Source: an uncultured delta proteobacterium (GTDB lineage: Bacteria > Desulfobacterota > Desulfobacteria > Desulfobacterales > UBA11574). From it: DNA of 64,000 bases. A program made the position numbers and the translations under genes. Shown here piece by piece: positions 8,138 to 54,423 of this stretch. Under the pieces are notes generated by a model. It made no database searches and was not told the DNA's origin. It saw nothing but the letters and a program-made list of their open reading frames with translations. The stretch is from assembly GCA_963706295.1 (NCBI GenBank), contig CAVPLW010000006.1:337277-401276 (forward strand), in the 5' to 3' direction. Every line of letters begins with the position of its first letter. Position 1 is the stretch's first letter.

Positions 8138-8273
8138 TTTAACCTCCTAATATTAATAACATTTACTCAATGTCATTCTCTTTTAAAAACATGTCGGATG
8201 TTATTGCCGACAATTTAAAACATATATAACACACAAATTATGTATTGCAAGATTAAAACCGTTTTTTATCGCC

Positions 8274-8537
8274 ATGAACCCTGACCAGTTATATCAAGAT
8301 CTTAAAGAACTTGCAGAAAAACTAGGTGTTTCGGTGTTAGAGCATAATTTTCGAAAAACCGGTATAACAGTGCAAAGTGGCCTATGCAAAGTCAAAGGAA
8401 AGACACTTTTTATCATGGATAAGCACAGTTCGATCAATGATAAAAACGAGATCCTTTTATCCTGTATCAGCAAAATGCCACATGAAGATATTTATATTGT
8501 GCCGTATTTGCGTGAGATGTTAAAAAGATGTCATTAG
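8274..8537 (+). CDS. Small hypothetical protein (87 aa)
   Basis: Clean ATG ORF in an otherwise non-coding gap. No family was recognised by eye. Confidence 0.4.
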   Translation: MNPDQLYQDLKELAEKLGVSVLEHNFRKTGITVQSGLCKVKGKTLFIMDKHSSINDKNEILLSCISKMPHEDIYIVPYLREMLKRCH

Positions 8538-8792
8538 TACCTTAATTGTGAATTTTGTGTTTTTTGTGGCAAAAAATTAGCTAAATTCATTGAGTGTAAT
8601 AGGATTAATATCACAACATAGTAGAAAGAGGCTATTTGCTTTTACTTTCGGCCCGGAAATTATGAAGCATTAATAAGTTTACATAATATATCTTATCAGA
8701 CATTGTAAAATAATAAAGTATAGAGAGCCCAAGGTTTTTAGCCCTTCAAAAGCAAAACTTGCTTATTGCTTTGCTTCAGGTTTTATGTTGAA

Positions 8793-8801
8793 TGGTATAA
8801 T
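8793..8801 (+). promoter_or_regulatory. Extended -10 promoter candidate (TGgTATAAT) upstream of xseA
   Basis: tggtataat lies at 8793-8801, 62 nt before the xseA ATG. The only -35-like hexamer, ttgctt at 8771-8776, has a long 19-nt spacer. Confidence 0.3.
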
Positions 8802-8862
8802 CAACTGTGATAATCATTTTTAGTCAATAATAAATACATTAAAAGAAAATAGTTAAAACTTA

Positions 8863-10230
8863 ATGAATTCATACCCCAGTATCCATTACATGGGCCCCTC
8901 GAATACAGATCAACATCGAATCTACACTGTTTCAGAGCTCACTTCAGATATTAAAGATATACTTGATAAAACCTATCCATTTATCTGGATATACGGTGAA
9001 ATATCGAATTTTAATGTTCCAGCTTCCGGCCATTTTTATTTTACGGTCAAAGATGAACATGCTCAGATCAATGCGGTAATGTTTCGAAATCAAAACCGGA
9101 ATTTAAAATTTAAGCCTGAAGACGGAATAAACATTACAGGGCTTGGTAGAATCACTGTTTATGAGCCTCGTGGAACATACCAGATTATATTTGAGTATCT
9201 TGAACCAAAAGGTACAGGCGCCATCCAACTGGCGTTTGAACAGCTAAAAAAACGTCTTGCAGATGAAGGGTTGTTTGATGAGAAACATAAAAAGCCCCTA
9301 CCCTTTTTGCCCCGAAAAATCAGTATCATTACCTCACCCACCGGAGCTGTTGTCCATGACATTTTAAAAATTATCGATCGTCGTTTCTCAAACCTCCATC
9401 TTGAAATTGTATCCGTCAAAGTGCAGGGATATGGTGCTGAAGACGAGATTATATCCGCCATCGAGATGATAAATTCCCGTTGTGATTCAGATGTGGCTAT
9501 TTTGGCAAGAGGCGGTGGTTCATTGGAAGATTTTCATGCGTTTAATTCAGAGGCTGTTGCCAGAGCTGTTTTTGCTTCTAAGATTCCGATAATTTCAGCA
9601 GTTGGTCATGAAACCGATTTTAGCATAACAGATTTTGTTGCCGACTTTCGAGCACCAACACCATCTGCTGCCGCTGAACTGGCAGTTCCTTTAAAGAAAG
9701 AGCTTTATAGGAAAATTACTAATCTTTCAGAAGTATTGACAACCCGTTTTTTACGGTATTTCGGACAGTTGCAAACCGTTATAAAAAGAATGTCGAATCG
9801 ACTGCTTCATCCCGACAGAAAAATAGTGGACTTAAGGCTAAGAAACGATGACATGCTGGGTCGACTTAACAGAGCGTTTAAAAACAGCTTTCTAAAACAT
9901 CATGAACGACTTTTGTGGCGTATCGAAAGACTCTTTTCCAACGATCCTTCAATACAGATAAAATTACTTAAAGATAAACTTGATATAAAAAATTCTAACA
10001 TTAATATATATATACAAATATTATTAAGTAATAAACGTTCAACACTTCGAGAGCTTGAAGCAAAGCTTTACACTCTAAGCCCTGAGGCAATTCTGGCAAG
10101 GGGATACAGTATTACCAGAACCATCCCGGATGCAGCTGTTATCAGAGATCCCCAAGAGGTGTACATTGGTCAGGATCTTGAAGTAATGGTTGCCGGAGGT
10201 GCCTTTATTTGCTCGGTAAAAAGGAAATAA
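8863..10230 (+). CDS. xseA: Exodeoxyribonuclease VII large subunit
   Basis: The OB-fold signature IWIYGEISNFNVPASGHFYFTVKDEHAQINAVMF and the catalytic region ARGGGSLEDF are present. The gene is followed directly by xseB. Confidence 0.93.
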   Translation: MNSYPSIHYMGPSNTDQHRIYTVSELTSDIKDILDKTYPFIWIYGEISNFNVPASGHFYFTVKDEHAQINAVMFRNQNRNLKFKPEDGINITGLGRITVYEPRGTYQIIFEYLEPKGTGAIQLAFEQLKKRLADEGLFDEKHKKPLPFLPRKISIITSPTGAVVHDILKIIDRRFSNLHLEIVSVKVQGYGAEDEIISAIEMINSRCDSDVAILARGGGSLEDFHAFNSEAVARAVFASKIPIISAVGHETDFSITDFVADFRAPTPSAAAELAVPLKKELYRKITNLSEVLTTRFLRYFGQLQTVIKRMSNRLLHPDRKIVDLRLRNDDMLGRLNRAFKNSFLKHHERLLWRIERLFSNDPSIQIKLLKDKLDIKNSNINIYIQILLSNKRSTLRELEAKLYTLSPEAILARGYSITRTIPDAAVIRDPQEVYIGQDLEVMVAGGAFICSVKRK

Positions 10231-20355: not shown

Positions 20356-21666
20356 TTAATAGAGCGGTAATATCTTTTTCCCGTAATCGGGAATGGAGGC
20401 GAGTAAATCTTCCCTGAGTGCTTTTGCATTCGGGTATCGATTTTCAGGATTTTTCTCCAGGCATTTCATTATGATGCGCTCTATTTCCTGATCTAAAGCT
20501 TCATTGAATTTGCTCGGTGGAGATGGAGGAGTCCTAAGGATAATGTCCATGAGTACCTTCTCCACTTCATGATAAAAAGGGAACATCCCCGTATAAAGCA
20601 CGTACATAACAACCCCGATGGCCCAGACGTCCGAGCGTCTCTGGCTTTTTCCCATAATTTGCTCTGGCGCCATGTAAGGCCTGGAGCCTGTTACAGTGGC
20701 GGACACCTCTTTTTCCCAGAGTTCTTTGGCTGCGCCGTAGTCCAGGAGTTTTATGGTTCCGTTTGGTCTTACCATCACATTCTCTGGCTTTATGTCTCGG
20801 TGGACGACCCCTAGATCGTGGGCATGAGCCACCACATCTGTGAGTTGAATCACGACGGACTCTACCTCTTTATCCTCGAGATCCCGCTCAATCACATCGT
20901 AAAGTGTTTTACCAACTATAAACTCCTGAATCAGCGTTTTTTTGTCCATTACTTCTATCATCTCGAAAACCTTGGGAACACCTTCATGACCGGTCAGACG
21001 CCTTAATATCCGGGCCTCCTTTTCGAACTTGGCATTTAAATTTTTATGCAGGGGAATCTTGGCAACAAAAATTTCTGGTGGATCCTTTGTCACGTCTTTT
21101 ACCTTCCATACCTCGCCAAAGCTCCCAATCCCCAACCTGTCCAGTTTCTCATACCGTTGTTTCATAAGCTCTTTTTCAGTTGACCTAGGATATAAACTTC
21201 GAAAAATCCTTTTCCAGAACCCAGGATAGCCGCCCTTTTCAATAGGGGCGCATACTCCTATTCTTAGCCTTGCATAATCGCCGCCATTTGCCATACGGGC
21301 GTGCACGTCGATCCTCTTTATAAGTTCTTTGGAATCAATGGGACAGGCGAGAAAGTCCGCCGCACCGGCTTTCAACGCCGATGCTGCCAGCTCCTCGGAA
21401 AAGCTTTCCAGAATCACAATCATCGGCTTTCCCAATTTAAGATCTTTGATGAACTGCTCAAGGGAAATGTCGGATTGTCTCAAGGACAAAAGGGCAACAT
21501 CTATTTTTTTCTTCTCTGCAAGCGTTCGCCGGGCTTCTTTCAAATCCATGGCTGTATAGACTCGATAACCGTAATTGTTAAGAAGCTTTTTTAGTCTGGC
21601 ACCTCTAATCTGGTCGCTGTCAATAACTAAAACAACTCTTTTTTTCCCATACGGGGTCTGATCCAT
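20356..21666 (-). CDS. Receiver-like domain fused to a Hanks-type Ser/Thr protein kinase
   Basis: The N-terminus has a CheY-like fold (VVLVIDSD...IDVALLSL...MIVILES...FLACP). The C-terminal kinase carries GIGSFGEVWKV, FVAKI, HRDIKPENVMV, DYG and PYMAPE. Confidence 0.85.
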   Translation of the reverse strand: MDQTPYGKKRVVLVIDSDQIRGARLKKLLNNYGYRVYTAMDLKEARRTLAEKKKIDVALLSLRQSDISLEQFIKDLKLGKPMIVILESFSEELAASALKAGAADFLACPIDSKELIKRIDVHARMANGGDYARLRIGVCAPIEKGGYPGFWKRIFRSLYPRSTEKELMKQRYEKLDRLGIGSFGEVWKVKDVTKDPPEIFVAKIPLHKNLNAKFEKEARILRRLTGHEGVPKVFEMIEVMDKKTLIQEFIVGKTLYDVIERDLEDKEVESVVIQLTDVVAHAHDLGVVHRDIKPENVMVRPNGTIKLLDYGAAKELWEKEVSATVTGSRPYMAPEQIMGKSQRRSDVWAIGVVMYVLYTGMFPFYHEVEKVLMDIILRTPPSPPSKFNEALDQEIERIIMKCLEKNPENRYPNAKALREDLLASIPDYGKKILPLY

Positions 21667-21807: not shown

Positions 21808-22419
21808 TTGCCCTTAATGATATTCAATTCAGAAGAAATTCTCTATTACAGTGTAACCATACTCGTCATCGTTGCTTTCAGCTCCGGTTTTACGCGACTT
21901 TTCGCTTTAAGTTTCGCAAATGTAAAGCCTGCCGGGGAAGAGGCCGATTTCGATTTCAATCCCTTCGGCAACCTGGATATTGTGGGGACCATCGTCTTTT
22001 TTCTGGGAGGTTTCGGCTGGGGCAAACAAGTGGACGATCAAAAGATCGGCTTCAAGCATCAGAAGCTGGGATGGCTCCTTGTTTCGCTGGTTGCCCCCTT
22101 TGCCAGTCTGACCCTGGCGGTCAGTGCGGCTTACATGAAGCAATACTTCTGGACCGACCGCGTCGTCGAGGTCGTACTCCATCTGTGCGCGGCTGTGACC
22201 GCTTACCATATACTCCCCATTCCTCCCCTGGCAGGTTCTAGACTGATCTACCTGGCGTTGCCCGGTCAGAATCAGCGTGTCTGGAGAATGTACTCAAGGA
22301 TCGGACCCTATATTCTCCTGGCTTTCGTAATCGCTGAACGTTTTTCGGGGGTGCCGTTATTAAAAGAGACGGTTGCACCGGTTTTGGACGTTGTGACCAG
22401 GTTTGCCGAATACCATTAA
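21808..22419 (+). CDS. Site-2-protease (M50) family homologue lacking the metal-binding motifs
   Basis: NPFGNLDIVGTIVFFLGGFGWGKQV and LPIPPLAGSRL align with the M50 motifs NPxxHxDxxGT...FGWAKPV and PxPPLDG. The HExxH position reads SSGFT. The TTG at 21808 lies 7 nt after AGGAGG, and the ORF is open from 21760. Confidence 0.6.
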   Translation: MPLMIFNSEEILYYSVTILVIVAFSSGFTRLFALSFANVKPAGEEADFDFNPFGNLDIVGTIVFFLGGFGWGKQVDDQKIGFKHQKLGWLLVSLVAPFASLTLAVSAAYMKQYFWTDRVVEVVLHLCAAVTAYHILPIPPLAGSRLIYLALPGQNQRVWRMYSRIGPYILLAFVIAERFSGVPLLKETVAPVLDVVTRFAEYH

Positions 22420-22437
22420 CCCGAATTTATCACAAAG

Positions 22438-22472
22438 AAAGGCGGAGAGGGTTAGCCCCTCCCCGCCTTTTT
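22438..22472. terminator. Bidirectional rho-independent terminator
   Basis: aaaggcggagaggg, loop ttag, then cccctccccgccttttt. A-runs and T-runs flank both sides, and the hairpin sits between convergent genes. Confidence 0.7.
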
Positions 22473-22512
22473 AGTTTACGATTGATCTTAATCTGTCAAA
22501 ATCGACCGAGTT

Positions 22513-23796
22513 CTATGCACCTCTTTTTTGTGGTTTCTTGGTAACCATAGAAATCAGAATTGCGAGAATGAGCAGTCCGCCTGCGACATAGAATGCGGTG
22601 TCGTAAGATCCGGTTGCGTCCTTGATTTTACCTGCCAGTTTGGGCATGAAGGCGCCCAAACCCCAGCCTATGAACACGAGTCCGTAATTAAAGCCCAGAT
22701 TTTTCGGGCCATAGAAGTCAGCCGTATAGGAGGGCATCAGGGCCAGGCCGCCGCCGTAGACCCAGTAAGCGATCATACAGGCCGTGAACGTCATAAAAAG
22801 CGATTTGGCCGCAATCATCGCCGGCAGCGCGAATAGGCAGAGAGCCGCGACCGCGGCATTGATCATGTAAGCCCGGTCCCGGCCGATGATATCCGAGTAC
22901 TTGCCTGTCCCGACCCGGCCCGCGGCGTTCATAAAACCGCCTGCAGCAACCAGTATAAATCCTTGTTCCAGGAAGGGTTTTACAATTTTAGCGGCGTGAC
23001 CGATGATGAGAAGGCCCGCTTGGGTGTTCAAGCAGAACAGGGCCACCAACGCGTAAAACTGCCACGTTCCCATCATCTCTCCTGCCTTCCAGTCAACCAC
23101 AGATGCAGCAGCTTTCTTTGTCGCTGCCGTCTCAGGCGGTTGAGGTGGAACGTATCCCTCTTCAGGCCATTTCAAAATCTGGGCCGCGATAAAGATGACG
23201 ATCAGGTAAGCGACACCAAGTACTAAAAATGACGCCGAAAGCGAATAACTGGTAATAATCCACTGGATGAGCGGGGACACGTAAAAGGCCGCGCCGCCGT
23301 AACCCGCGACCGTAATACCAATCATGACACCCACCTGATGGGGACCGACCCATCTTCGTGTTGCGGGAACGGGAGCGGCATAACCAATGCCCATGGCGAT
23401 ACCGCCGCCGACGCCGAATCCCCAGAGGATTCCGGCGTAGGAGTGAGCCGTACCGGCGATAATCATACCCAGTCCCATGAAGACGGCAGAGATGGAGCCG
23501 GCCACGGAAGGACCGTATTTATCCTGGATCTTCCCGCCGGGAATCATGAGCAGGGCAAAGACTAAAATACACAATGACGCCGGGTTGGAGGCCTGTTCCG
23601 CAGTAAGGGCGGCGGTCCAGCCGTGGGCCTTCATGTAAACGTCGTCTGTGAGATACTTGAGCCATACGGACCACGCATACAAACAGCCCAGACATAAGTT
23701 GATGGTCGTACCAGCGAGGATAACAGCCCATCCACGTCCGGGTATTGCATCTACCGGTTTATTGTAACCCTCGGCATACTTTCCTAAAAATGCCAT
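22513..23796 (-). CDS. MFS transporter, oxalate/formate-antiporter-like
   Basis: 427 aa with about 12 TM segments. It is Gly/Ala-rich in the MFS manner, and the N-terminus WAVILAGTTINLCLGCLYAWSVW is typical of the OFA subfamily. Confidence 0.75.
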   Translation of the reverse strand: MAFLGKYAEGYNKPVDAIPGRGWAVILAGTTINLCLGCLYAWSVWLKYLTDDVYMKAHGWTAALTAEQASNPASLCILVFALLMIPGGKIQDKYGPSVAGSISAVFMGLGMIIAGTAHSYAGILWGFGVGGGIAMGIGYAAPVPATRRWVGPHQVGVMIGITVAGYGGAAFYVSPLIQWIITSYSLSASFLVLGVAYLIVIFIAAQILKWPEEGYVPPQPPETAATKKAAASVVDWKAGEMMGTWQFYALVALFCLNTQAGLLIIGHAAKIVKPFLEQGFILVAAGGFMNAAGRVGTGKYSDIIGRDRAYMINAAVAALCLFALPAMIAAKSLFMTFTACMIAYWVYGGGLALMPSYTADFYGPKNLGFNYGLVFIGWGLGAFMPKLAGKIKDATGSYDTAFYVAGGLLILAILISMVTKKPQKRGA

Positions 23797-24191
23797 TAGT
23801 ACACCTCCTTAAAGTTTGAAACATTCAGTTAATTACCGGAGTCTTTAAGGTACGTTTTAGCTGATATTCTATGACACTTCTTTGACCTGTTACGAATTCA
23901 GCTAACTCGTCCAGTTAAGGTGTCATTTTGAATAACCAACAGCTATTTAGCCACATGGCATAAAGCATCCTTACGATTTCCGGTTTAAAAAAAACATAGC
24001 CACTGGAAGAGAGGGTTGTTTTGCTGATCGTGCGTCAAAAAAACACACCAGCTTCTTCTCTTCTCATAGCCAAACTGTGATATCACCCCCTTTCCGGTTA
24101 ATTGTTAAAATAAGCCGCTTTTTCTTTTGTTTTGGCCATTATGAACCAAACCATTTAATACCTGAATCGATCTGCTTAGAACCGGTGAATT

Positions 24192-24854
24192 TCAGTTTGC
24201 TGATTCAGGGCGTGTTTCTATACCTCGGTTAAATATTTCAAATGCAATTTCAAGGGTCGGTTTTAAGAAATCTTTTTTACTGTCAATCAATCTTTTACTT
24301 TCCTCCCAAAGAACAACACCTGAAAATAACGCCCACACAATGTCGGCCAATGCCACCGGATGCCTGTCGATAAACTCTCCTTTTTCTATTCCTTCTTCAA
24401 AAACTCTTGCCATGGACTTAAATGAATGTCTGGATAAATCCTTAATGTCCGTAAGCAGATGAGGTGATAAATTCTTCAGCGTTTCGCTGGATTGCAGATG
24501 GAACATGTTGATCAGCACAAGCGGATCAAACTCGTAGACTTCATATAGGGCTTCCTTGAGTGCTTTTAATTTTTCTTTTGGCTCTTTATACTTTTCGTTA
24601 TGTACATGTTCCAGCCGGATGCTCATATATTGCAAAATTCTGAGCGATAGAGAGGCAAACAACTCTTCTTTATTTTTGAAATAGAGATAAATCGTACCTG
24701 GGCTTAGTTCTGCTTCCTTGGCAATATCTTCCATGGTTGCCTTGTTGAAGCTCTTTTTTGAAAAAACTCTTTTTGCGGCAACCATTATTTGCTGCCGTCT
24801 TCTTCCTCTTTCCCGTTCTTTCCTTTCCTTTATACCCATATTTCCCTGAACCAT
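24192..24854 (-). CDS. TetR/AcrR-family transcriptional regulator
   Basis: The HTH region reads FNKATMEDIAKEAELSPGTIYLYFKNKEELF. Confidence 0.88.
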   Translation of the reverse strand: MVQGNMGIKERKERERGRRRQQIMVAAKRVFSKKSFNKATMEDIAKEAELSPGTIYLYFKNKEELFASLSLRILQYMSIRLEHVHNEKYKEPKEKLKALKEALYEVYEFDPLVLINMFHLQSSETLKNLSPHLLTDIKDLSRHSFKSMARVFEEGIEKGEFIDRHPVALADIVWALFSGVVLWEESKRLIDSKKDFLKPTLEIAFEIFNRGIETRPESAN

Positions 24855-25107: not shown

Positions 25108-26061
25108 TCAATCCACAATTTTTTTAAGGTATGGGTTTTCCATGAGAGCGTAAAAAGCAGTTTTAAAGCCTTTGAGTTGAGTCATGTTGTTAAAACTTAA
25201 TTGCAATGTATAGGTTGGACTTTCAAAATTGGTTGGCGGAACCAGTTTAAAACCCTTTTCGAGGTTCAATTTTTGACGATATTGTTCATAAGATTTTTCG
25301 ATGATAGCTATGGTTGGAAAGCGCCGTTGTTTTAAATATATCCTTATATTGTGAGCCTTTTGATTTTTATCAAGGTCCTCATTCATCAAGATTTTTTTCA
25401 GATGCGATTCTTCAATAACCTGTAAGATAGATTTGTCTTCACGCATGGCAATTTCTTTTACCAGCGTTACGATTTCCCTCTGCTTATTAAGACTCAATTT
25501 AAGGGTATCAAAAAGTTTTATAAAACCTTTCGCATCATCCCACGACATTCCAGCAAGCTCCAAAAGCATGGCAAGGGAAATCGTATTGGAAAGGATGGCG
25601 TTTTGAAGCGGTTCGGAAAGATGACAAATGCCTTTGAGCTTTTTGATCATTGATGGATGTTCAGATAGGCCCAATAACGACAGTTCTTCGGCCAGCTTGT
25701 TAATATCTCTGAAAAAGTCGGACAGCATTTCGATGGACCTTGACTTTTCTATTAAGTTCAAAGGTCTTTGAAAAGCGTTATCTGTGATGGCATATTTTAT
25801 ACACTTAAGCCTCATGGTATCAGGGTCGAGAATCATCGCTTCAAGTTTAGACCAATTCAGGCGTCGACAGGCTTCAATCCTACGAAAACCGCATATAATC
25901 GTATAGGTTGTTTCTTTTTTCAATAACAATGGAAGATGCAACATCCCAACATGATTTATTGAGTGCATCAAATCATCCACTTGCTTCTCGGTAGTGATAC
26001 GAAAAACATCATCACTGAAATCGATCTGGGACAGATTGACGATTTTTTCTCTAAAGCGCAT
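25108..26061 (-). CDS. ParB/Srx N-terminal-domain protein with a long helical C-terminal region
   Basis: [31 protein letters not shown]...[16 protein letters not shown] matches the ParB N-domain, including a GxRR box. The ATG at 26061 overlaps the purC end by 11 nt. Confidence 0.65.
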
Positions 26062-26947
26062 GGGTTGTTGCAGTGAGTTGTTGAAATGCTTCAAGATATT
26101 TATTGCGTGTATTGTCAATTACATTTTGTGGTAGGGATGGTGCCGGTGGCTTTTTATTCCAGTTGATGGAAAGCAGGTAGTCTCGGAGATATTGCTTGTC
26201 AAAACTTTTTTGCGCCCCTCCGGGTTTATAGGAGGGTTGGGGCCAGAATCTGGAAGAATCCGGCGTCAAAACCTCATCGATGAGTATAAGCTCGTCATCC
26301 AAAAGGCCAAACTCGAATTTCGTATCCGCAATGATGATACCCTTTTTATATGCCAGGTCGGCACCTTTGTTGTAGATTTCAATACTGAGTGTTCTGACTT
26401 TTTCGGCCAACGGTTTTCCGATCTTTTCTACTGTTTTTCCAAAATCTATATTAATGTCATGAAGACCTGACTCTGCTTTGGTTGAGGGCGTAAATACAGG
26501 TTCGGAAAGCTTGTCGGACTCTTTCAGACCTTCGGGAAGTTTTATACCGCAGACACTACCGGAAACCTGGTAATCATTCCAACCGGATCCGGATATATAG
26601 CCCCTTACAATACACTCAATGGGCAGTGGTGTCGCTTTTTTTACAAACATGCTCCTTCCACGAAGAATTTCCGAATAAGGTCTGCATATCTCAGGATAAT
26701 CATCCACGTTAGCGGAAATCACATGATTGGGTAAAACCGGCTTCATTATCTCGAACCAAAAAAGGGAGATTTGAGTTAGAATTTTTCCTTTTTCAGGAAT
26801 TGGGTTGGGCATGACAACATCAAAGGCGGAAATTCGATCTGTAGCCACCATCAAAAGATGATCACCAAGATCGTATATATCTCGCACTTTACCCCTTTTT
26901 ATTAGATTTAACGATTCGAAACTTGTTTCAATTACAGCCTGTTTCAT
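26051..26947 (-). CDS. purC: Phosphoribosylaminoimidazole-succinocarboxamide (SAICAR) synthase
   Basis: [23 protein letters not shown] and [10 protein letters not shown] are present. The internal ATG (MKQAV) is the preferred start. Confidence 0.93.
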
Positions 26948-27010: not shown

Positions 27011-27355
27011 TTACTGTTCCGAAAATACTTCGATATATTTTTTTAAAATTTCAATTGTCGCGTCATCAGTTTCGACGAACTCGATTCCTGCTTCAAACTT
27101 TTCATCTTTTCCGGGTGTGGAGAAAATAATACTACCCTTGATATTAATCAGTTCGTCTTCAAGGCCTATTGCCAGTTCTATAGTATATTTTGGATCTATT
27201 GAAACATGTGTTTCCAGCAGAATTCCCTCTTCGCTGACATTTAAAGTTCTTCCCATTCCCTGAGCGACAACACTCTCAGTCGCATCAATGCAACTATAGA
27301 ATATCAGATTGAGTGCGTTGATTCTTGGATGATGCCTTTTTTCGTTTATCCCCAT
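27011..27355 (-). CDS. PilZ-domain protein (single domain, c-di-GMP receptor type)
   Basis: The RxxxR motif (RHHPR) and the D/NxSxxG motif (NVSEEG) are both present at the usual spacing in a 114-aa protein. Confidence 0.8.
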   Translation of the reverse strand: MGINEKRHHPRINALNLIFYSCIDATESVVAQGMGRTLNVSEEGILLETHVSIDPKYTIELAIGLEDELINIKGSIIFSTPGKDEKFEAGIEFVETDDATIEILKKYIEVFSEQ

Positions 27356-27415
27356 GTTATTCCCCCAGTGGTTATGATTTTACGGGCAATCGATTTTCTT
27401 TTAGTTGAAATATCA

Positions 27416-28600
27416 TTATTCCAGGGTTTGTTTCCGGCTGGATTTTTTATGAAATTCGCATGTGACCATGGAGGTTACCGATATACAGGTTGCAAGATGA
27501 TCAATAAAGTTTTTAAATGTGGCTTGAAGCTGGTTGTATTCCTGTTGAAAGCTGTCAGGTGACATTTTCTTGAACTCGAGGTTCTTCGAGCCAAAGACGG
27601 AAGCATGAAATGGTTCTTGTCCAAGATCAAGGAACGGAATATTGCCAAAGAGATCTCCCGGATAAAGACTCCCAAGCGGCACATATCCATATTCGGTGTG
27701 CCGGACAATATGAGCGACTCCTTTAGTGATTTCAAACAAATTCTCTTCACCATCCCCCTGGTTAATCACCTGATTTTTGACGTTAATATATTCTTCCAAC
27801 CGTATCTTGTTCAAATGAATATCAACTGCCATATCAGTGACCTGTTTCATCCTTTTATCAAGACTTATGGCAAGGTTTCTAAAAGAATTGGACATACGCA
27901 AGAAGTCAACTGAAAGGCGACGCGCATCGAGCACACCCAGTTGGACATTGGTAACTGCAGAAATTGCCGCACTTCGAACGGTTCCCTCTAACATTAAAAA
28001 AGAAGAAAGACTCCCAATAAATGCGCCTTCACCGATCCTGAGCAATTTTAAGTGGCCTTTCGGAGTTTTTCTGACAATTTCTGCTACACCTTCCAAAATG
28101 ACCCATAACCAGCCACCGTGTTTTCCTTCTGCCACGATCTTGTTGTTTGCACGGAATTCTTCCTCGTCCACGATATACGTATAATCGATGAGAGGTCCCT
28201 TTATAATAGGCATTTTTGATGAATCTCCAAAAGATTGTGATGCGTCGGAAAATGTTAAAGGTCCTAACCGTTCTATCTGGCAATCGTCGAGCATGCTTAA
28301 AGCGTCAAGGATAATTTGCATGCGGCTTTTATTAATAATCCGTTCACAAGAAACACTTTCATCTCTGAATTCAAATTCTCCATCAACCCATCCAAAAAGT
28401 GAGTTCAAAGCATCAAGCCCGACCAATGATCCCGCCGACGCATTCACTGGGTTCCCTTTGACGAAATATATTTTTCCCTGGACTTGGGCATATTTACTTG
28501 TAATACACAGAACACCCGTGCTTGTATTTGAACCGAGAAATTGTAAGATATCACCGAGGCTCAGAAATTTAAGATTACCTGCAAGAGCGAAATTTCCCAT
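27416..28600 (-). CDS. DUF4388 (PATAN-like) domain protein with two cyclic-nucleotide-binding-like domains
   Basis: The N-terminus LKFLSLGDILQFLGSNTSTGVLCI...GKIYFVKGNPVNA...GLDALNSLFGWVDGEFEF is a DUF4388 signature. Two CAP-effector-like beta-barrels follow. The first retains VRSAAISA; the second reads FHASVFG. Confidence 0.7.
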   Translation of the reverse strand: MGNFALAGNLKFLSLGDILQFLGSNTSTGVLCITSKYAQVQGKIYFVKGNPVNASAGSLVGLDALNSLFGWVDGEFEFRDESVSCERIINKSRMQIILDALSMLDDCQIERLGPLTFSDASQSFGDSSKMPIIKGPLIDYTYIVDEEEFRANNKIVAEGKHGGWLWVILEGVAEIVRKTPKGHLKLLRIGEGAFIGSLSSFLMLEGTVRSAAISAVTNVQLGVLDARRLSVDFLRMSNSFRNLAISLDKRMKQVTDMAVDIHLNKIRLEEYINVKNQVINQGDGEENLFEITKGVAHIVRHTEYGYVPLGSLYPGDLFGNIPFLDLGQEPFHASVFGSKNLEFKKMSPDSFQQEYNQLQATFKNFIDHLATCISVTSMVTCEFHKKSSRKQTLE

Positions 28601-28609
28601 TTTTTATAT

Positions 28610-29224
28610 TTACTGTCCTAATTTCATTTCTTTTTTTAATGATATTAATGTTAGCTTAAAGCATTCCTTTAACGTCGCTCCAACACCTTGACCCGTGATA
28701 GCGCTGGCTGGAAAAGAAGGTACTTTAAGCTGTCTGTTTAAATCCCTTTCCATCTGCTCTATAGCCATAATAGGAAGCCCTTCTCCAGCAAGATCTCTTT
28801 TGTTGTGCTGCATGACAAGGGGAATGTTAAAAATGTTGATCCCGTATTCTTTTAAATTATGCTGTAAATCCTTCAAAGACAGCATGTTTTTTTCACGCCG
28901 AACCGCCAGTGAATCGGCGACAAAAATCACACCGTCAACCCCTTTTAATACAAGTTTTCTGGTGGATCTGTATTGAACCTGACCGGGAACTGTGTAAACT
29001 TGAACCGTAACATCAAAGCCTTTTATCTCACCAAGCCCCATGGGAAGAAAGTCAAAGAAAAGGGTCCGATCACCTTCGGTATCAATGGAAACCATTTCGC
29101 CGGTCACTTGTTTTTTATATGACTTATAAATATGCTCCATATTCGTTGTTTTACCACATCTTCCAGGTCCGTAATATACGATTTTACACTCGATCTGTCT
29201 TTTTTTAAGATTTAAAATAGCCAT
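28610..29224 (-). CDS. mglA: MglA-family Ras-like small GTPase
   Basis: It is collinear with Myxococcus MglA: IECKIVYYGPGRCGKTTN, GDRTLFFDFLP (intrinsic Arg), YTVPGQVQY (catalytic Gln), LKGVDGVIFVADS and QHNKRDL. Confidence 0.88.
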   Translation of the reverse strand: MAILNLKKRQIECKIVYYGPGRCGKTTNMEHIYKSYKKQVTGEMVSIDTEGDRTLFFDFLPMGLGEIKGFDVTVQVYTVPGQVQYRSTRKLVLKGVDGVIFVADSLAVRREKNMLSLKDLQHNLKEYGINIFNIPLVMQHNKRDLAGEGLPIMAIEQMERDLNRQLKVPSFPASAITGQGVGATLKECFKLTLISLKKEMKLGQ

Positions 29225-29524
29225 ATAACATCAGCCCCGTATCATTGGATTAGATATGTCAAATCATCACAATATGACATTAAATTAGTATTTCACAAAA
29301 TTTTCTCAAAATTTTCAAGTTCTTTATTGTTTCGTGATTCTTTCCAGATTTAATTTTTCGAGTCAATTCGAATGCTTCGTTAATATTTTGCCGTTATTTT
29401 TGGTAAATATAGATTTTTACAGACAAATCATAGGGTAATCTTTGATAATTATTCAGCCTGAAAAAGAAAATATTAAAGCCTAATGCCCAGATATTAAAAA
29501 AAACATCTTCAACGGTATTATGGT

Positions 29525-30511
29525 CTAATGAACCACAACCTCAATGTCCACGCAGTAATCTCCCCGTAAAGGGCCGATTGTGATTTCTTTTACTGCAGAA
29601 ACTAAACCTGAGCCATTAAACAGGCCAACGTTAGAATAATACTGAACACCATGAATCTCAGATCCAATTTTAAAGTTTTCTATCACATTTTTATCTCTGC
29701 TTGGAATGAGAAGGCTGACAACTTTTCCCAATTGGAACCTGACTTTAAATTCAAATACATGACCTTTTTGAGGGCCGCTGTCCACAGTTATTCCGATGGA
29801 GTTGACATCAAGAACATCCTCACTTTCGGCTTGAGATTCAACTTCACTCTTCTCCAACCCGGCATCCTCTGGTTCGGAAACTTGAACCTGATCATTTTCT
29901 GAAAATACCGCCACCTTAACTTTATCCACCTGTTCTTTCGTCTTTGGAAGCGTTTCTTCAACCCCCTCACTTTTCAAGAGGCTTTCAAAGAAAATAAATA
30001 CTAAATTCAACTGATTAGGATTAAATATATCGTCTAAAAGCCATTTCTTATACTGAGATATGGCTTCATCTATTGAAAAAAGTGTCATATGGCATCTTAA
30101 GATATTCTTGGCAGCATTAACACGGGTCGAATCTCTTTTTAGAAGTTCATTAAAGTCTGATATCGCTCTTTTAAACTGACCGAACTTTGCCAATGCCACT
30201 GCGCCCTCAAGTGCTTTTGCATCTTCATCCACATCGGGTGAAAACGCGTACATCTTTTTAATCAGGTCTTGAATATTTTCTGAGACTTCAGGTTTCTTTG
30301 GGGCCAATTCGATCTTGGAAATATCTTTATTCAACACGTTGATTTTCTTGGAGATTCCCTCAAGAAGGTTTTGTTTGTTTTTGAGTTGTTCGTTGTTCTG
30401 TATGAGTTCGGTTGCATCATTATATTTCGCTATCGCCTCATACAATAACCCCTGGGAATGATAGAGTTCTGCTTCCTTTAACAATGTTTTTATCTTTTTT
30501 ATTATATTCAT
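29525..30511 (-). CDS. TPR-like repeat protein with an acidic linker and a C-terminal beta-rich domain, hypothetical
   Basis: TPR-like helices are present (LYHSQGLLYEAIAKYNDATELI and LAKFGQFKRAISDFNELLKRD). A Glu/Ser-rich linker and a roughly 100-aa beta-rich C-terminus follow. The function is not recognised. Confidence 0.5.
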   Translation of the reverse strand: MNIIKKIKTLLKEAELYHSQGLLYEAIAKYNDATELIQNNEQLKNKQNLLEGISKKINVLNKDISKIELAPKKPEVSENIQDLIKKMYAFSPDVDEDAKALEGAVALAKFGQFKRAISDFNELLKRDSTRVNAAKNILRCHMTLFSIDEAISQYKKWLLDDIFNPNQLNLVFIFFESLLKSEGVEETLPKTKEQVDKVKVAVFSENDQVQVSEPEDAGLEKSEVESQAESEDVLDVNSIGITVDSGPQKGHVFEFKVRFQLGKVVSLLIPSRDKNVIENFKIGSEIHGVQYYSNVGLFNGSGLVSAVKEITIGPLRGDYCVDIEVVVH

Positions 30512-41758: not shown

Positions 41759-43627
41759 TTAATCTGTTTCTTCCCACAACGCATCCTTCAACCCTGAGTT
41801 GCGGTTAATTTTACGCAATATGGTGGTTTTAATGATCCCTTCCCTACCCCAAATCGAAATATGGTTTTTGGCTCTGGTAATCCCTGTGTAAAGAAGTTCA
41901 CGAGTTAATACAGGATAATCCTGGTTCGGTAAAATAAGAAGGACCGTCTCAAACTCTGACCCCTGACTTTTGTGAACAGTCATTGCATAAGCTGTTTCGT
42001 GTTCCGGAAGCCGATATGGAAGAAACCGCCTGAGTTTACCGGCAACACCTGAAAAGTAAACATACAAATCTTTGCTTTTTGAATCCGGTTCAGACATGGT
42101 GATTCCGATATCTCCATTAAAAAGTTCCAAGCTGTAATCGTTACGCGTAATCAGAACAGGTCTTCCTCTGTACCATGGATAGGTTGATAAATTATCGAGT
42201 TCGATAAAGCCGTTCCGGTTTAATATTTCCTCCGTCAATCTGTTTATTTCAATAACACCCAATGCGCCAAATTTGACGGCACAGAGTATCCTGAATCGAT
42301 TAAACAGCTCAAGTGCTCTGTGAGGATCACGGCAATTAAGATAATCTGAATATCCATTGATGACTTCTTTTGACAGGGCCATTGAAAGATCGTTAGGGCC
42401 TGAGATCTTTTTCCAATCGATTTGATCCGGATTGCTTTTAAGGGTTGAGAAAGTTTCATCAAATTTGCCGTTATTTACAGCTCGGCTGCATTCTCCAATT
42501 CCACTGGTATCTGTAAATCGATAACTCTTTTTTAGAACAACCATACAGTCATAAAGGCCCGGATTGTCTTTAAGTTTCTTGCTCGAGACTTCCATTTTAC
42601 ACTGGGTTAGCTTCTCAAACTGTTTGTAAAAATATTTCGAAAATAAGTGGACATTGTCCCTGTCACAGATATCTGACATTACAAAACCTGCTTCCACTGA
42701 AGCAAGCTGATCCCTGTCTCCAATGAGTATGACTCTGGCATCATTTTTCACAGCTGAAAGGAGTTTGGACATCAACGCAAGATCCACCATTGAAACTTCA
42801 TCCACCACTACGATGTCGGCAGTGAGAGGATTTTCAGCATTATGGTAAAAATATGGGGAGCCAGGAATTGTTTTCAGCATTCTGTGAATCGTGTATGCCT
42901 CGGAAGGTATGGCATCAATAATATCATCGCTACAGTTGAGTGTTTTTTTTGCAGCCTTAATTGATTCACCGATCCTTGCCGCTGCTTTTCCTGTGGGCGC
43001 GGCGAGTAAAATGCTGAGTTTATCTTTTCGGGATAGCTCTAAAAGAAGGGCAAGAATTTTTGCCGTCGTGAAAGTTTTGCCGGTTCCCGGACCTCCGGTA
43101 ATGACACAAAACTTTTTAAACGCAGCGATAACCCCGGCCACTTTGTGCCAATTGAATTCATCAGTCCCAATATTTGGAAAAAGCCTGTTTAGGCTGTCTT
43201 TTAAAGTGGATCCATCTATTCCCTGAATATCTTCCTTGATGCGGCTTTTGATTGTATTTGAAAGTCTGTTTTCGTAATCCCAATATCTATAAAGGTAGAG
43301 TCTGTTTTTTTCATCGAGTATCAGGGGACGAAATTCACCGGGTCTTCCCACCACCCGGCTTTGGCTTAAAGTTTTTAACCACTCTGAAAGTTTCGGACTT
43401 TTAAATCTATCTTCACCATCAATTTCTAAAAGGATCGGCTTTCGGGCTATAGAATTGAGGTCAAGATACCCATCTCCGTCGCCGGTTGCACGACTGACAA
43501 AGGCAGCAGCAAGAAAAATATCCGGATTATCACTTTTATCAAAACTTGTGACAAACTTGGCAAAATGAACATCTATATCAGAAAGATATCCTTTATCAAT
43601 TAAATTGGCTAAACTATCTTTGTTCAT
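41759..43627 (-). CDS. recD: Exodeoxyribonuclease V alpha subunit
   Basis: Walker A ITGGPGTGKTFT, Walker B VVVDEVSMVD, and the SF1 helicase motifs VILIGDRDQL and MTVHKSQGSEF are present. Confidence 0.9.
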   Translation of the reverse strand: MNKDSLANLIDKGYLSDIDVHFAKFVTSFDKSDNPDIFLAAAFVSRATGDGDGYLDLNSIARKPILLEIDGEDRFKSPKLSEWLKTLSQSRVVGRPGEFRPLILDEKNRLYLYRYWDYENRLSNTIKSRIKEDIQGIDGSTLKDSLNRLFPNIGTDEFNWHKVAGVIAAFKKFCVITGGPGTGKTFTTAKILALLLELSRKDKLSILLAAPTGKAAARIGESIKAAKKTLNCSDDIIDAIPSEAYTIHRMLKTIPGSPYFYHNAENPLTADIVVVDEVSMVDLALMSKLLSAVKNDARVILIGDRDQLASVEAGFVMSDICDRDNVHLFSKYFYKQFEKLTQCKMEVSSKKLKDNPGLYDCMVVLKKSYRFTDTSGIGECSRAVNNGKFDETFSTLKSNPDQIDWKKISGPNDLSMALSKEVINGYSDYLNCRDPHRALELFNRFRILCAVKFGALGVIEINRLTEEILNRNGFIELDNLSTYPWYRGRPVLITRNDYSLELFNGDIGITMSEPDSKSKDLYVYFSGVAGKLRRFLPYRLPEHETAYAMTVHKSQGSEFETVLLILPNQDYPVLTRELLYTGITRAKNHISIWGREGIIKTTILRKINRNSGLKDALWEETD

Positions 43628-43708: not shown

Positions 43709-46700
43709 TTATTTTCCATCTAATATAAGCTCCGCAAGAAGAGCATCAACAAGGGTTTTATCAGGAATATCTTTGTAAATACCGAATTGAGGGCCTTTGT
43801 CCGGATCCACCCCTCTTATAAAGATGTAAAAAACACCGCCAAAATGTCGTTCATAGCTAAATTCAGGTATTCTCAGCTGAAGGTATTGATGAAGTGCCAG
43901 GACATATAAATGATATTGCAAAATGTAAAAATCCCTGCTCATCACATTATTCAAAACATTTTTGCCATAGTCTTCAACGCTGCTTCCTAAATAGTTCGAT
44001 TTCCAGTCCACCAACCAAAAACGATCCTGGTCATGAAAAACCATATCGATGTAACCTTTCATAAAACCTTTGGTTAAAGAAAAGCTGAGCTTACCAAGCC
44101 GGTCCGGAAAATCATCAACAAGATCGATGCCCCCATAATCAGCAAATATCTTTCTGAGTCGATTCGGTGACAGCGGTTTGAGTGGAAAATAAAACTCCAT
44201 TTCATTGATCCTGTTGCGGCATTGAACGGAAGAAAGCATCAAAGTGGTTTTGTTTATGGAAAGTGGTACTGAAAGAACATTGTCCACCATGGCACAGACA
44301 GGTTTTAGCCATTTGGATTCAAATCTGTAATCCTTTAATTTGTTTGATATCAATTTTATTCTTTCTTCTGTACAGCTTTCAGCAAAATCAAGATGTTCAA
44401 AAACGTCATGGAAGAATATCCCGGCCCGGGTTCCTTTTGGAAATGAAAAAATGTTTTCATTTGTAAATAAATGCGAATCGTTTTCCGTTATAGGTGTATA
44501 CAAATCATGGGATACGTCACGATCCGGAAGTTCTGCATCCAGTGTCCGTTGTGATATGAGACGTGAAAAACTGGAGATGTTCCATGTGGTATCAATTTTT
44601 CCTGAAAAATGTCTGCAAGACAACCCTTCCTTTTTATCCTCTTCTGCCAAGTATTCCATGGTATCGTCAAGCGGTAGCGGAACAATTTTTATTGACCCTT
44701 CTGACTTGGTTGATAGCTGTTTTAAGTCTTCGAGCAAATCCTCTTCGTTTTTTTCTAAAACATCTTCTCTTAAAGATGTCAGCAGATTTTCTCTTAAAAT
44801 ATCTTCTGATTGCCCTTTATAATGTAACAGATAAGCGATGGCAGAAGTTTCAGCGGTATTGAATCTACCCCATACAAGATAACATTTATGTATCGCTCGT
44901 GTTATTGCAACATAAAGCAACCTCAGGTTTTCAGCCAGGCGTTCATTTTGAGCAATGGCAAGGTGTGTGCCGAAGTTTTTTGAACCAAGATCAAGGGTGA
45001 GGGTTTCATTTTTATCCGTGTCATGGAACAGAATCTCGCGGTCTTCAATTAAGGACCCCTCCCATGCAAAGGGACAAAACACAACAGGGAACTCAAGACC
45101 TTTACTTTTGTGAATGGTGATAATTTGTACGGCCTGATCATCGCTTTCAAGACGAAGTTGATGCGTTTCAGATTCAGGTACTTCAGCGTTTCTTTGTTCT
45201 GAAAGCCATTTAAGCAGACCGGTGATACCAAGCTTTTTTTCAGATGATTCCTGATGTAGAATTTCTGCCAAATGGAGTAGATTGGTCAGTCTCCTTTCAC
45301 CGTCAGGAAAACTCAAAAGGCGTTCCCTAACCTTTTCCTCGGCCATCAACAGCCGAAACATCCGGATAAAGCCATACCGTGTCCATAAGCGAAAATATTC
45401 TCTGAACCTGCTGTATTTGGCTTCCAACCAGAACGGTTCCCCGCCGACCGAATCGAGGTCTTCTCCAAAAACACCGAGGATATCGGTCACAACCGCGGCA
45501 TTAAATGCCCTTTCGTTTCCGGGTTCGGCAATGCTTAACAGAATTCTTTCCATTTCCATTGCCTCATGGGTATGGAATATGTTTCCTGTATGATGGAGAA
45601 CCGATGGGATACTTTTTAATGAAAGGTTCTTTTTTATTATCTGCGCCTGTCGATTTGTTCTGACAAGAACAGCAATATCTTTTGCATTAATGCCATGGGA
45701 GAGATTGTTTTTATTTTCCAGAGATAAGGTGGGATATTTCACCCGCAACCGCCCTTGCGATGAGTGGTACAGCCTCGGTTTTATTCAGTGGTTTAGCTGT
45801 GTTGGCATTTTTGTTTGCTCCCAAATACCATAATGTCAACGCCGGTAAAGATCTTTCGTTCATCGACTTGATTTTCTTTCCGGAAATACCCTTTTCAAAT
45901 CCAATCTTATCAAAGACAAACGGTGCATTTATATTTGAGAATATGGTATTTACTGCGGTTATCAAATTGGGATTTGATCGCCAGTTTTTTATCAAGGTAT
46001 ATTTTGAATCTGTGTTTCGCACAGCTTTCATATAAGAAAAAATATCTGCTCCCCGGAAACTGTATATGGATTGTTTTGGATCTCCGATCATAAAAAGTGT
46101 GCTCTTTTTTGAATCGAAAATCCGGGTAAAAATGATATACTGAAAAGAATCCGTATCTTGAAATTCATCAACAAGGGCGGCACTGTATTTTTTCCGAATT
46201 ATTTGAGCGAGCTTTTTCCCACCGGTATCTTCGAGTGCATTTTTAAGCTTTATTAAAAGATCGTCATAGAATTGAATATTGTTTTGTTTTTTTCTTACCA
46301 AAAGCTGTTCCCGGGTGAATTTGAAACACTGGGCCTTAAAATACATCAAATATGTTTCCATCTCAGATTCAAGGAAAACACCTTTGTGGTAAAGTTTATC
46401 ACAGATATCAAAATATTCATGTGAAAGGGGTCTACAATTTTTCCGGGTCGAATTTTCTATTTTGGCTGCGGTAAATTTTTCAAAACCTTTAAATAAAGGA
46501 AAACCGCTAGATTTTTCATCAACAAACTTGTCCATTAATGCGATCATGGAGGCAACCATCAGGTCTCTTTTTGAAACATCCATTTGCATTGTTACTGATT
46601 TCAAACTGCCATAAATTGATCCGCTAAGAGATGAATCTTTCAACAAATGTGTCACCTGGATACGTGATTTTGGCCAAATAGTTTGCAGTCTTTTGAACAT

Positions 46701-47336
46701 CGCTCTAAAGTCATTAAGGCTTGTCAAATCAGGCTGTTCAAGCTCTGGAACAATCTTTATATCTGCGGTTCTATTTTTTGTCAGAAGCCTTAAAAAATAC
46801 TCTGGTCCGGATATTTTTTTTAGGAGAAAACTTATAAATTCCATGGGCAAACTGTAAAAATGTTTTCTCCAGAAATCATCCACAATTTCCCGTGTCAAAC
46901 TTGTGGGATCGGCCACAAGTTCTGTGTCGAACAAACTCTGTGTTTCAAAAGCATTCTCATGGAGAATCCGCTGACAAAAACCGTGTATGGTAAATATCGC
47001 GGCATTGTCAAATTCCATCACCGCATCTTGAATCAATTGAATTGCTAAATCCCGATTATCATATTTTTTAACAATGGTTTTGATGAAGACATCATGACTC
47101 GAATCCTTTAAAAAAGCGGATTTTGCATCCAAAAGCGTGTTGCGGATTCTTTCTTTAAGCTCTTCAGTGGCAGCCTTGGTAAACGTTACCACCAGTATTT
47201 GATTTACCGTTAATTGTTTTTCGAGAATAAGTCTTAAAAAGAGGCCGGCAATGGTATAGGTCTTACCGGTACCTGCGCTTGCCTCAATGAGATTGGTTCC
47301 TGTGAGGGGAGTGTTGATTGGATCAAAAATTTTCAT
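43709..47336 (-). pseudogene. recB: Exodeoxyribonuclease V beta subunit interrupted by a single frameshift (ORFs 45711..47336 and 43709..45748)
   Basis: The N-terminal ORF has UvrD-type motif I (EASAGTGKTYTIAG). The C-terminal ORF has the helicase C-domain (ITIHKSKGLEFPVVF) and the RecB nuclease motif (GYIDMVFHDQDRFWLVDWKSNYLG). The two frames overlap at a T5-A-T4 tract (45708-45717). Confidence 0.85.
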
Positions 47337-52279: not shown

Positions 52280-52283
52280 GTTA

Positions 52284-52320
52284 GGATTGATGATTTATGA
52301 TTGACGATTTAAGATTGAAA
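52284..52320. repeat. Word element, family E half copy (GATTGATGA words)
   Basis: ggattgatgatttatgattgacgatttaagattgaaa matches 20 of its first 21 nt with the left arm at 54424. It lies in the imuB-dnaE2 spacer. Confidence 0.7.
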
Positions 52321-52361
52321 ATTTAAATAAGCCTTTGTCAATTCTTCCCCAAATAATCAAT

Positions 52362-53534: not shown

Positions 53535-53535
53535 A

Positions 53536-54380: not shown

Positions 54381-54423
54381 GTGTTGCTCTGAACCTAAAC
54401 GATTTCGGAAGAATTCCCTTTTT

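Follow-up and report, generated by a model that had tools for sequence, protein, structure and literature searches.

How does a Ras-like GTPase of the MglA type operate when the gene for its GTPase-activating protein (GAP), MglB, is not at its side? This question is raised by a small gene block within a 64,000 nt stretch of DNA, referred to herein as the window, from an uncultured delta proteobacterium of the order Desulfobacterales (contig CAVPLW010000006.1, positions 337,277 to 401,276). The block consists of mglA, a gene for a 394 aa protein that joins a PATAN (DUF4388) domain to two cyclic nucleotide-binding (CNB) barrels, herein the PATAN/CNB protein, and pilZ, with an open reading frame (ORF) for a TPR-like protein of 328 aa upstream. 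All of these genes lie on the minus strand, with gaps of 300 nt between the 328 aa ORF and mglA, 9 nt between mglA and the PATAN/CNB gene, and 60 nt between the latter and pilZ. MglA serves as the reference case of a Ras-like polarity switch in bacteria, and what is understood of its mechanism depends almost entirely on MglB, its GAP; in the present case the sulfate reducers of an entire order, which are abundant in the environment, retain a highly conserved MglA with no mglB close by.

The interpretation favoured herein, with moderate confidence, is that the block represents a vertically inherited Desulfobacterales signalling operon of three to four genes, centred on an MglA that would work without an adjacent MglB, with the PATAN/CNB protein as its partner and a polar output. 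That the block is largely co-transcribed and co-inherited is the best-supported reading of the evidence. A first-pass annotation, made from the letters of the DNA alone, had described the MglA-type GTPase, the PATAN and two-barrel protein 9 nt downstream, and a PilZ protein 60 nt further on, and each of these descriptions holds when set against structural and domain databases.

Conservation of the gene block

In a scan of one genome per species, 80 loci were recovered in which the PATAN/CNB protein is 43–93% identical. Nearly all of these belong to Desulfobacterales, and the few that are labelled Nitrospinaceae, Gammaproteobacteria or Hyphomicrobiales are taken to be mis-binned contigs. Amongst the module-bearing genomes, CP070746.1, CP070769.1 and CP070694.1 are complete. 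At every testable locus (75/75) the PATAN/CNB gene is immediately preceded by mglA on the same strand, and pilZ is found downstream of it at 74 of the 75; the gap between mglA and the PATAN/CNB gene measures 3–15 nt in 55/79 loci. In one lineage (L042–L044) the flanks are wholly different (AsmA and DUF4197 to one side, PCC and DAGK to the other), and the TPR-like, MglA, PATAN/CNB and PilZ genes nonetheless remain together as an intact block. At a further locus, L073, the downstream side is rearranged. The three-gene order, which the first-pass annotation had put forward as a possible module, is thus borne out by its gene neighbourhoods: the three genes are a conserved unit and not chance neighbours.

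The TPR-like gene belongs to the block in some lineages only, as its fourth member. It is present upstream of mglA at 38/65 testable loci, being kept in the rearranged lineage and absent from the clade of approximately 50% identity.

Two individual loci depart from this arrangement. In L066 a gap of approximately 570 nt (9129-9696) separates the PATAN/CNB gene from purC, and this is the sole related locus at which no PilZ gene could be detected there. In L042, a complete-chromosome metagenome-assembled genome (MAG; CP070769.1), the PATAN/CNB gene at 8001-9170 is divided into two ORFs (8001-8735 and 8751-9170), reflecting either a frameshift or an assembly error.

MglA and its P-loop arginine

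Against solved structures (phmmer search of the PDB), the window MglA matches that of M. xanthus (6h17_A, E = 1e-60) and that of T. thermophilus (3t12_A, 2e-53), both over its full length, and by BLASTP it is 53% identical to the M. xanthus protein. Pfam models for Arf and Ras both match above their cut-offs. The P-loop GPGRCGKT (GxxxxGK[ST]), DRTLFFDF, TVPGQ and NKRD ([NT]KxD) are all present, in agreement with the motifs and the likeness to Myxococcus MglA that had been noted initially. Group-1 MglAs are distinguished by an arginine beside the G2 threonine together with a TVPGQ G3 motif (PMC4316618), and the window MglA displays both, within DRTLFFDF and TVPGQ. The window MglA keeps the equivalents of the catalytic Arg53 and Gln82, as do 79 of 82 orthologues. 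Its closest relatives, as represented by the best 120 matches, are 92–98% identical, and the few with named sources derive from Desulfobacteraceae or Desulfobacterales MAGs; across the related loci, MglA orthologues display identities of 62–98%.

The P-loop itself carries an arginine at the position of Leu22 in M. xanthus MglA. Every one of the 78 orthologues whose P-loop can be recognised has this residue, and four of them have in addition alanine at position 21 (Gly21 to Ala). A motif scan of the 150 best MglA representatives of 50%-identity clusters finds leucine at position 22 in 123 and arginine in 10, with one further arginine read by eye. Nine of the 150 are nearer to the window MglA than to that of M. 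xanthus, and these have arginine in eight cases and lysine in one, so that a basic P-loop residue marks a distinct sub-branch. Arginine is also found in three representatives of canonical type (P0379, P0469 and P0471).

One account of the missing MglB would begin with this residue. MglA may be self-sufficient, or locked in one nucleotide state, by virtue of its altered P-loop (Leu22 to Arg, accompanied in some relatives by Gly21 to Ala), so that a GAP would be unneeded and the neighbouring genes would localise the GTPase or read it out. The invariance of the arginine, which marks the whole sub-branch, is consistent with this, as are GBP1 (R48) and atlastin (R77), in which a catalytic arginine occupies the same P-loop position. 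Three sister lineages of the basic-residue sub-branch, P0349, P0350 and P0422, have lost either the catalytic glutamine (TVPGA, TVPGG) or the intrinsic arginine (DLTLFFDF, KDKPLFFD); from their sequences they may be pseudo-GTPases, and such losses are as expected without selection for MglB-assisted catalysis. Alanine at position 21, moreover, falls within the A/S21 substitutions reported for five MglB-less MglAs (PMC3983030). Set against these points, the orthologous group to which the window MglA belongs keeps both Arg53 and Gln82, which favours an active cycle, and the arginine is shared with the three canonical-type proteins. This account is regarded as improbable.

With regard to the wider family, no fusion of MglA with PATAN, CNB, PilZ or MglB is present among the 150 cluster representatives. 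Most of these (P0348-P0497) are 300–800 aa in length, having an N-terminal G domain followed by long, low-complexity tails rich in proline, alanine, serine and lysine, which may be real SofG-like extensions or the product of gene-calling read-through.

Absence of a neighbouring mglB

The initial observation that no Roadblock/LC7 ORF lies within several kb of mglA is upheld by wider searches. A Pfam scan of the window's 21 small ORFs yields no match to Robl_LC7, and at the window locus no Roadblock/LC7 gene is found within the approximately four genes of mglA that define a coupled MglA–MglB pair. A hidden Markov model (HMM) built from the M. xanthus and T. thermophilus MglB sequences taken from the PDB returned nothing below E = 4 from six-frame translations of the 64 kb window and of 85 related loci (approximately 8 kb around each). 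Likewise, the precomputed Pfam annotation of called genes within 10 kb contains no Roadblock domain at the syntenic loci L001 and L003.

For evidence on a whole genome one must turn to published tables. In Table S2 of PMC4316618, Dole_2371 of D. oleovorans Hxd3 is listed as '<PATAN>MglA', a protein of 204 aa that is the sole MglA of its genome, and the organism appears in neither the coupled-MglB nor the orphan-MglB tables of that study (Wuichet & Sogaard-Andersen, PMC4316618). Dole_2371 very probably belongs to the same module as the window block, in which case this entry is the only available evidence that a module-bearing genome is wholly without mglB. A literature search on D. oleovorans and MglB found nothing. 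Other Desulfobacterales, namely D. autotrophicum HRM2 and D. alkenivorans, are listed with a 201 aa MglA accompanied by MglB and with no 204 aa copy (PMC4316618).

These last two organisms invite a different explanation, in which the window MglA would be an extra, SofG-like paralogue; a canonical mglA–mglB pair would lie elsewhere in the genome, its MglB or another GAP would serve both GTPases, and synteny alone would account for the PATAN/CNB and PilZ genes at its side. Many deltaproteobacteria do indeed have several MglAs, with orphans by PATAN genes in addition to a canonical mglA–mglB pair, and the housekeeping genes that flank the block are conserved along with it. On the other side, D. 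oleovorans has the 204 aa MglA alone, with no MglB in the published tables, whilst the genomes with a 201 aa mglA–mglB pair are not listed with a 204 aa copy. Furthermore, the block survives replacement of its flanks, and gaps of 3–15 nt indicate co-translation rather than incidental adjacency. A spare paralogue of this kind is given little credence.

The PATAN/CNB protein

Pfam assigns the 394 aa protein a DUF4388 domain (PF14332; 61.3 bits against a cut-off of 25, E = 1.2e-16) and a cNMP_binding domain (PF00027; 67.5 bits) in two stretches, thereby confirming the domain content proposed for it by the first-pass annotation. Approximately 1,450 homologues exist, and among the approximately 225 distinct matches listed nearly all share this architecture, with lengths of 385–412 aa. 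An AlphaFold2 (AF2) model from an 87-sequence alignment (pLDDT 83.6, pTM 0.72) predicts a compact PATAN domain at approximately residues 6–105, a disordered linker (116–128), two beta-barrels and a long C-terminal helix (360–393). Within the PATAN region, where block-mean pLDDT is approximately 76–93, the predicted order is beta-alpha-beta3-alpha-beta-alpha, with no helical insertion. When the whole model is submitted to Foldseek only CNB-domain matches are obtained, the best of them, at E = 3e-11, being to the tandem CNB domains in the regulatory subunits of PKG and PKA. The Joint Genome Institute (JGI) name for this protein, CRP-like transcription factor, is rejected because it possesses no DNA-binding domain: there is no HTH_Crp match, and the NCBIfam CRP match spans model positions 9–132 only, which is the nucleotide-binding part.

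The two phosphate-binding cassettes read RSA in barrel 1 and HAS in barrel 2, just as originally described. In neither barrel, however, is the canonical combination found of a glutamate for the ribose 2′-OH and an arginine for the phosphate. Alignment to PKA RI-alpha places a serine in the ribose-binding glutamate position of barrel 1, whilst the phosphate-binding arginine is kept; neither residue (S197, R209) varies across the 87 aligned sequences, and the cassette contains a three-residue insertion. In barrel 2 (FGN...HAS) the glutamate is replaced by asparagine (or histidine), and the arginine by a histidine that varies between H, N, Q and S in relatives. Since both cassettes are non-canonical, cyclic-nucleotide binding is possible for barrel 1 at best. 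The convergence of GTP, a cyclic mononucleotide and c-di-GMP in one operon, as suggested by the first-pass annotation, is consequently doubtful, given that barrel 1 lacks the glutamate and barrel 2 both the glutamate and the arginine.

What, then, might such a protein do beside MglA? In Epac, a cNMP-binding domain controls the guanine nucleotide exchange factor (GEF) for the Ras-like GTPase Rap. By similar logic, the PATAN/CNB protein could be a ligand-gated GAP or GEF that takes the place of MglB (or of RomR/RomX), rather than an effector. MglB is missing locally, and from D. oleovorans in the published tables; the tightest coupling within the block is that of mglA with the PATAN/CNB gene; and tandem CNB domains are a well-known device of allosteric regulation. 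The retention of Arg53 and Gln82 also points this way, since with the catalytic residues kept the GTPase cycle is probably maintained and in need of control. The protein itself offers less encouragement, as Pfam, NCBIfam and MglB HMM searches reveal no known GAP- or GEF-related domain (Roadblock, CDC25 or RomX-like), and the CDC25-homology/REM catalytic domain of Epac-type GEFs was not found by Pfam or NCBIfam. The modelled secondary-structure order of its PATAN domain likewise appears to differ from that of the Roadblock fold. In addition, PATAN is documented only as a binder of the pilus motor or the divisome, and not as a GTPase regulator. A GAP or GEF role is considered unlikely.

A more specific version of the same idea, to which a smaller likelihood still is attached, envisages the PATAN/CNB/CNB protein as a small-molecule-gated GAP, GEF or guanine nucleotide dissociation inhibitor (GDI)-like regulator that acts directly on the GTPase, as a prokaryotic parallel to Epac and Rap, and that would have displaced MglB in this lineage. 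The P-loop arginine would then act in cis in catalysis, as in GBP1 and atlastin, with hydrolysis set off by a partner-induced rearrangement and not by a Roadblock GAP, and c-di-GMP would provide a second input through PilZ.

PilZ and TPR-like proteins

The 114 aa PilZ protein scores 30.9 bits against the Pfam model (PF07238; cut-off 22.5), in line with its first assignment. The RHHPR and NVSEEG motifs recognised at that stage are present upon translation, and the corresponding RxxxR and [D/N]xSxxG residues are ≥95% conserved (that is, at least 95%) in 78 orthologues. A phmmer search of the PDB with this protein gave no match. In M. xanthus, PlpA possesses both c-di-GMP motifs, yet displays no c-di-GMP binding in vitro (PMC8316039), and intact PilZ motifs are therefore no guarantee that the ligand is bound.

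Of the initial description of a TPR protein with a beta-rich C-terminus 300 nt upstream of mglA, the position of the ORF and the beta-rich C-terminal domain both stand, whilst the TPR label is weakly supported. No Pfam TPR model reaches its gathering score (best E = 3.8e-4), and matches to consensus-TPR entries in the PDB are weak (E = 0.003-0.9). The possibility that the C-terminal domain is a second PilZ was considered and rejected by hhalign (probability 0.8%).

A model for the operon

Returning to the signalling operon favoured above, its parts can be arranged as follows. MglA-GTP would directly bind the PATAN/CNB protein, and the PATAN domain would link this complex to machinery at the cell pole. 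The likeliest candidate is the motor of the type IV pilus, because PATAN domains bind the motor PilB in cyanobacteria, as demonstrated in Synechocystis; mglA/mglB genes, in addition, regularly lie near PATAN genes, and the sole documented activity of PATAN, in cyanobacterial PATAN-REC proteins, is the binding of the pilus motor or the divisome. The tandem CNB barrels might act as a ligand-sensing module that gates this partnership, replacing the receiver domain of PatA-type regulators. By analogy to PlpA/PixA and Bd2492/CdgA, PilZ could be a c-di-GMP-responsive accessory and the TPR-like protein, where present, a scaffold. In this way, the module would set or switch the active cell pole via second messengers and not by an MglB/Frz circuit. 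Any choice between GAP, GEF and effector for the PATAN/CNB protein, all of which had been offered at the outset, is pure conjecture.

A number of observations weigh against this arrangement. No pilus, gliding or flagellar genes are present in the 64 kb window, and the output machine is therefore a guess. The absence of MglB from the window organism is established for the 64 kb window only, and the non-canonical cassettes suggest that the CNB ligand may be something other than a cyclic nucleotide. As for the gene order, synteny of uvrC, mdh, purC, parB-like and tetR genes is also kept in most loci, so that order alone could reflect inheritance, and the block is parted from its flanks only in the one rearranged lineage (L042–L044) and in L073. 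Coupling also appears looser in one subclade, where mglA and the PATAN/CNB gene are separated by a spacer of approximately 200 nt, as opposed to approximately 9 nt, that has a promoter-like element of its own. Finally, L087 (8001-8618), a sister MglA with the P-loop arginine on a large contig, has no PATAN, PilZ or MglB neighbour, from which it follows that the operon is confined to the orthologues of the window MglA.

The spacer of the looser subclade (L051, L055, L058, L059, L062-L064, L069, L071, L078, L080 and L083) contains a conserved T-rich stretch and then TG-n-TACAAT, resembling an extended −10 promoter; with this sequence conserved, the PATAN/CNB gene probably has its own promoter there. 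Neither a conserved small ORF nor an Rfam element is found within it.

L087 also disposes of the suggestion that MglAs with a P-loop arginine are always paired with a PATAN/CNB protein. The gene downstream of mglA at this locus encodes 457 aa and belongs to no Pfam family. The contigs of L086 and L088 are too short for their partner genes to be judged.

Comparison with described systems

The novelty implied by the first-pass annotation was overstated. Orphans uncoupled from MglB account for 59/449 MglAs (PMC4316618), the adjacency of mglA and PATAN genes has been published, and a precedent for an MglB-less MglA exists in Bdellovibrio. What the locus adds is an MglB-less MglA hub whose operon includes a PATAN/CNB/CNB partner not described before, rather than a new class of system. 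A literature search found no paper on a PATAN/CNB protein or on a PilZ gene in an mglA operon.

The association of MglA with PATAN was recorded by Makarova et al. 2006 and by Wuichet & Sogaard-Andersen 2015 (PMC4316618), as 'PATAN' only and as an occasional feature, with some Group-1 and Group-5 MglAs lying near PATAN genes (PMC4316618). The catalogued neighbourhoods of Dole_2371, aq_1560, HTH_1432 and MXAN_2693 share the adjacency of a Group-1 mglA and PATAN seen here. Neither survey described the CNB-CNB architecture, the neighbouring PilZ gene, an operon that is near-invariant across an order, or the P-loop arginine, and the terms 'cNMP' and 'PilZ' are absent from the main text of the latter (PMC4316618).

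With the MglA–MglB (RomR–RomX) systems of M. xanthus and T. thermophilus, the window block shares a Group-1 MglA with the intrinsic arginine, TVPGQ and NKRD. It differs in having no MglB nearby and an arginine for the canonical leucine, whilst the PATAN/CNB and PilZ proteins are not part of the Myxococcus module. M. xanthus does possess PlpA and PixA, which keep MglA unipolar (PMC8316039); both are small PilZ proteins with both motifs that act on MglA polarity, but they are not encoded beside mglA.

Bdellovibrio bacteriovorus (PMC3983030) likewise has an MglB-less Group-1 MglA with a P-loop substitution, together with the TPR protein Bd2492, CdgA (a receptor for c-di-GMP) and RomR. Interaction assays identified these partners, whose genes lie at separate loci, whereas the block described herein is known from its genes and forms one operon. 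The Bdellovibrio P-loop change is G21S, giving an MglA(S21) proposed to need no GAP, as opposed to L22R here; its receptor is a degenerate GGDEF and not a PilZ protein, and no PATAN/CNB protein takes part.

PatA-type PATAN-REC proteins (PixG, PixE and PatA) share with the PATAN/CNB protein an N-terminal PATAN domain followed by a signal-receiving module, and in cyanobacteria this PATAN binds PilB or the divisome and controls polarity. Here, tandem cNMP barrels replace the receiver, and the gene is encoded with a small GTPase rather than with a chemotaxis-like system. The tandem CNB likeness to PKA and PKG regulatory subunits, although these are the best structural matches, also has its limits. 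Compared with PKA, PKG and Epac, the PATAN/CNB protein has no kinase-inhibitor sequence, docking domain or CDC25-type GEF domain, and has lost the cassette glutamate from both barrels and the arginine from the second; the likeness to Epac is one of logic only.

With its partners fixed in the same operon, the control of MglA without MglB can be tested using three or four defined proteins. Should the PATAN/CNB protein prove to be a ligand-gated regulator or effector, small-molecule second messengers would be tied to a bacterial small GTPase, and the widespread, poorly understood PATAN domain would gain a biochemical role. If not, the locus would be one more catalogued orphan-MglA neighbourhood.

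Locus layout and further features of the window

The positions of the genes, domains and motifs discussed above are collected in Table 1.

Table 1. Genes, domains and motifs of the mglA block, with positions in the window
Feature	Position	Strand	Remarks
TPR-like ORF	29525..30511	-	328 aa; weak helical repeats at approximately residues 10-160, acidic linker, beta-rich C-terminal domain
Intergenic region 5′ of mglA	29225..29524	-	300 nt; likely operon promoter site
mglA	28610..29224	-	204 aa; Group-1 Ras-like GTPase of the P-loop-arginine sub-branch
P-loop GPGRCGKT	29147..29170	-	Arg codon 29159-29161, position 22 of M. xanthus MglA
PATAN/CNB gene	27416..28600	-	394 aa
PATAN (DUF4388) domain	28283..28582	-	Residues 7-106 of the 394 aa protein; Pfam PF14332
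First cNMP-type (CAP-effector) barrel and C-helix	27815..28174	-	Residues ~143-262; Pfam PF00027
Barrel 1 phosphate-binding cassette FIGS...VRSAAI	27962-28021	-	Translated
Second cNMP-type barrel and long C-terminal helix	27422..27793	-	Residues ~270-393; second PF00027 stretch; cassette degenerate
pilZ	27011..27355	-	114 aa stand-alone PilZ-domain protein; Pfam PF07238
PilZ RxxxR motif RHHPR	27323-27337	-	Translated
PilZ [D/N]xSxxG motif NVSEEG	27224-27241	-	Translated

A promoter and terminator scan places Sigma-70-like matches on the minus strand at 29366-29337 and 29476-29448, both being weak consensus matches only. No Rfam family, and hence no RNA element or riboswitch of that collection, is found in the operon, including its 300 nt upstream region. 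The larger ORFs of the window are housekeeping genes, amongst them uvrB/uvrC, mdh, cysS, purC, purB, dxs, EF-G, helicases of the recD-like and uvrD-like types, and the dnaE2/imuB/lexA cassette.

Several other features of the window were observed in passing. The gene for a ParB_N-domain protein of 336 aa (25108-26118, minus strand) shares its first 68 nt with the end of purC; it follows purC in most related loci and is absent from the rearranged L042-L044. A fusion of a receiver domain with a Ser/Thr protein kinase (436 aa, 20356-21666, minus strand) is conserved at the corresponding position in L001 and L003. GC content peaks at 0.52, compared with approximately 0.40, at 22001-24000, where an MFS transporter is encoded (22513-23796, minus strand) next to a TetR regulator (24192-24854).

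An SOS-mutagenesis-type cassette occupies 49280-55231 on the minus strand and comprises lexA (54590-55231), a Y-family imuB-like gene (52362-53534) and a dnaE2-like gene for Pol III alpha (49280-52279). Its GC content of approximately 0.51, against approximately 0.40 elsewhere, could mean horizontal acquisition. The usual imuA slot is taken by a DUF72 gene (53536-54380, minus strand), which consists of two overlapping ORFs, 53853-54380 (model positions 1-99) and 53536-53952 (106-216); this split indicates a frameshift, and thus either a pseudogene or an assembly error. A UvrD/AddA-like helicase (43709-47336, minus strand) similarly falls into two ORFs with a 38 nt overlap, an N-terminal helicase part at 45711-47336 and UvrD_C at 43709-45748, which may be another frameshift, and a RecD-like gene adjoins it at 41759-43627.

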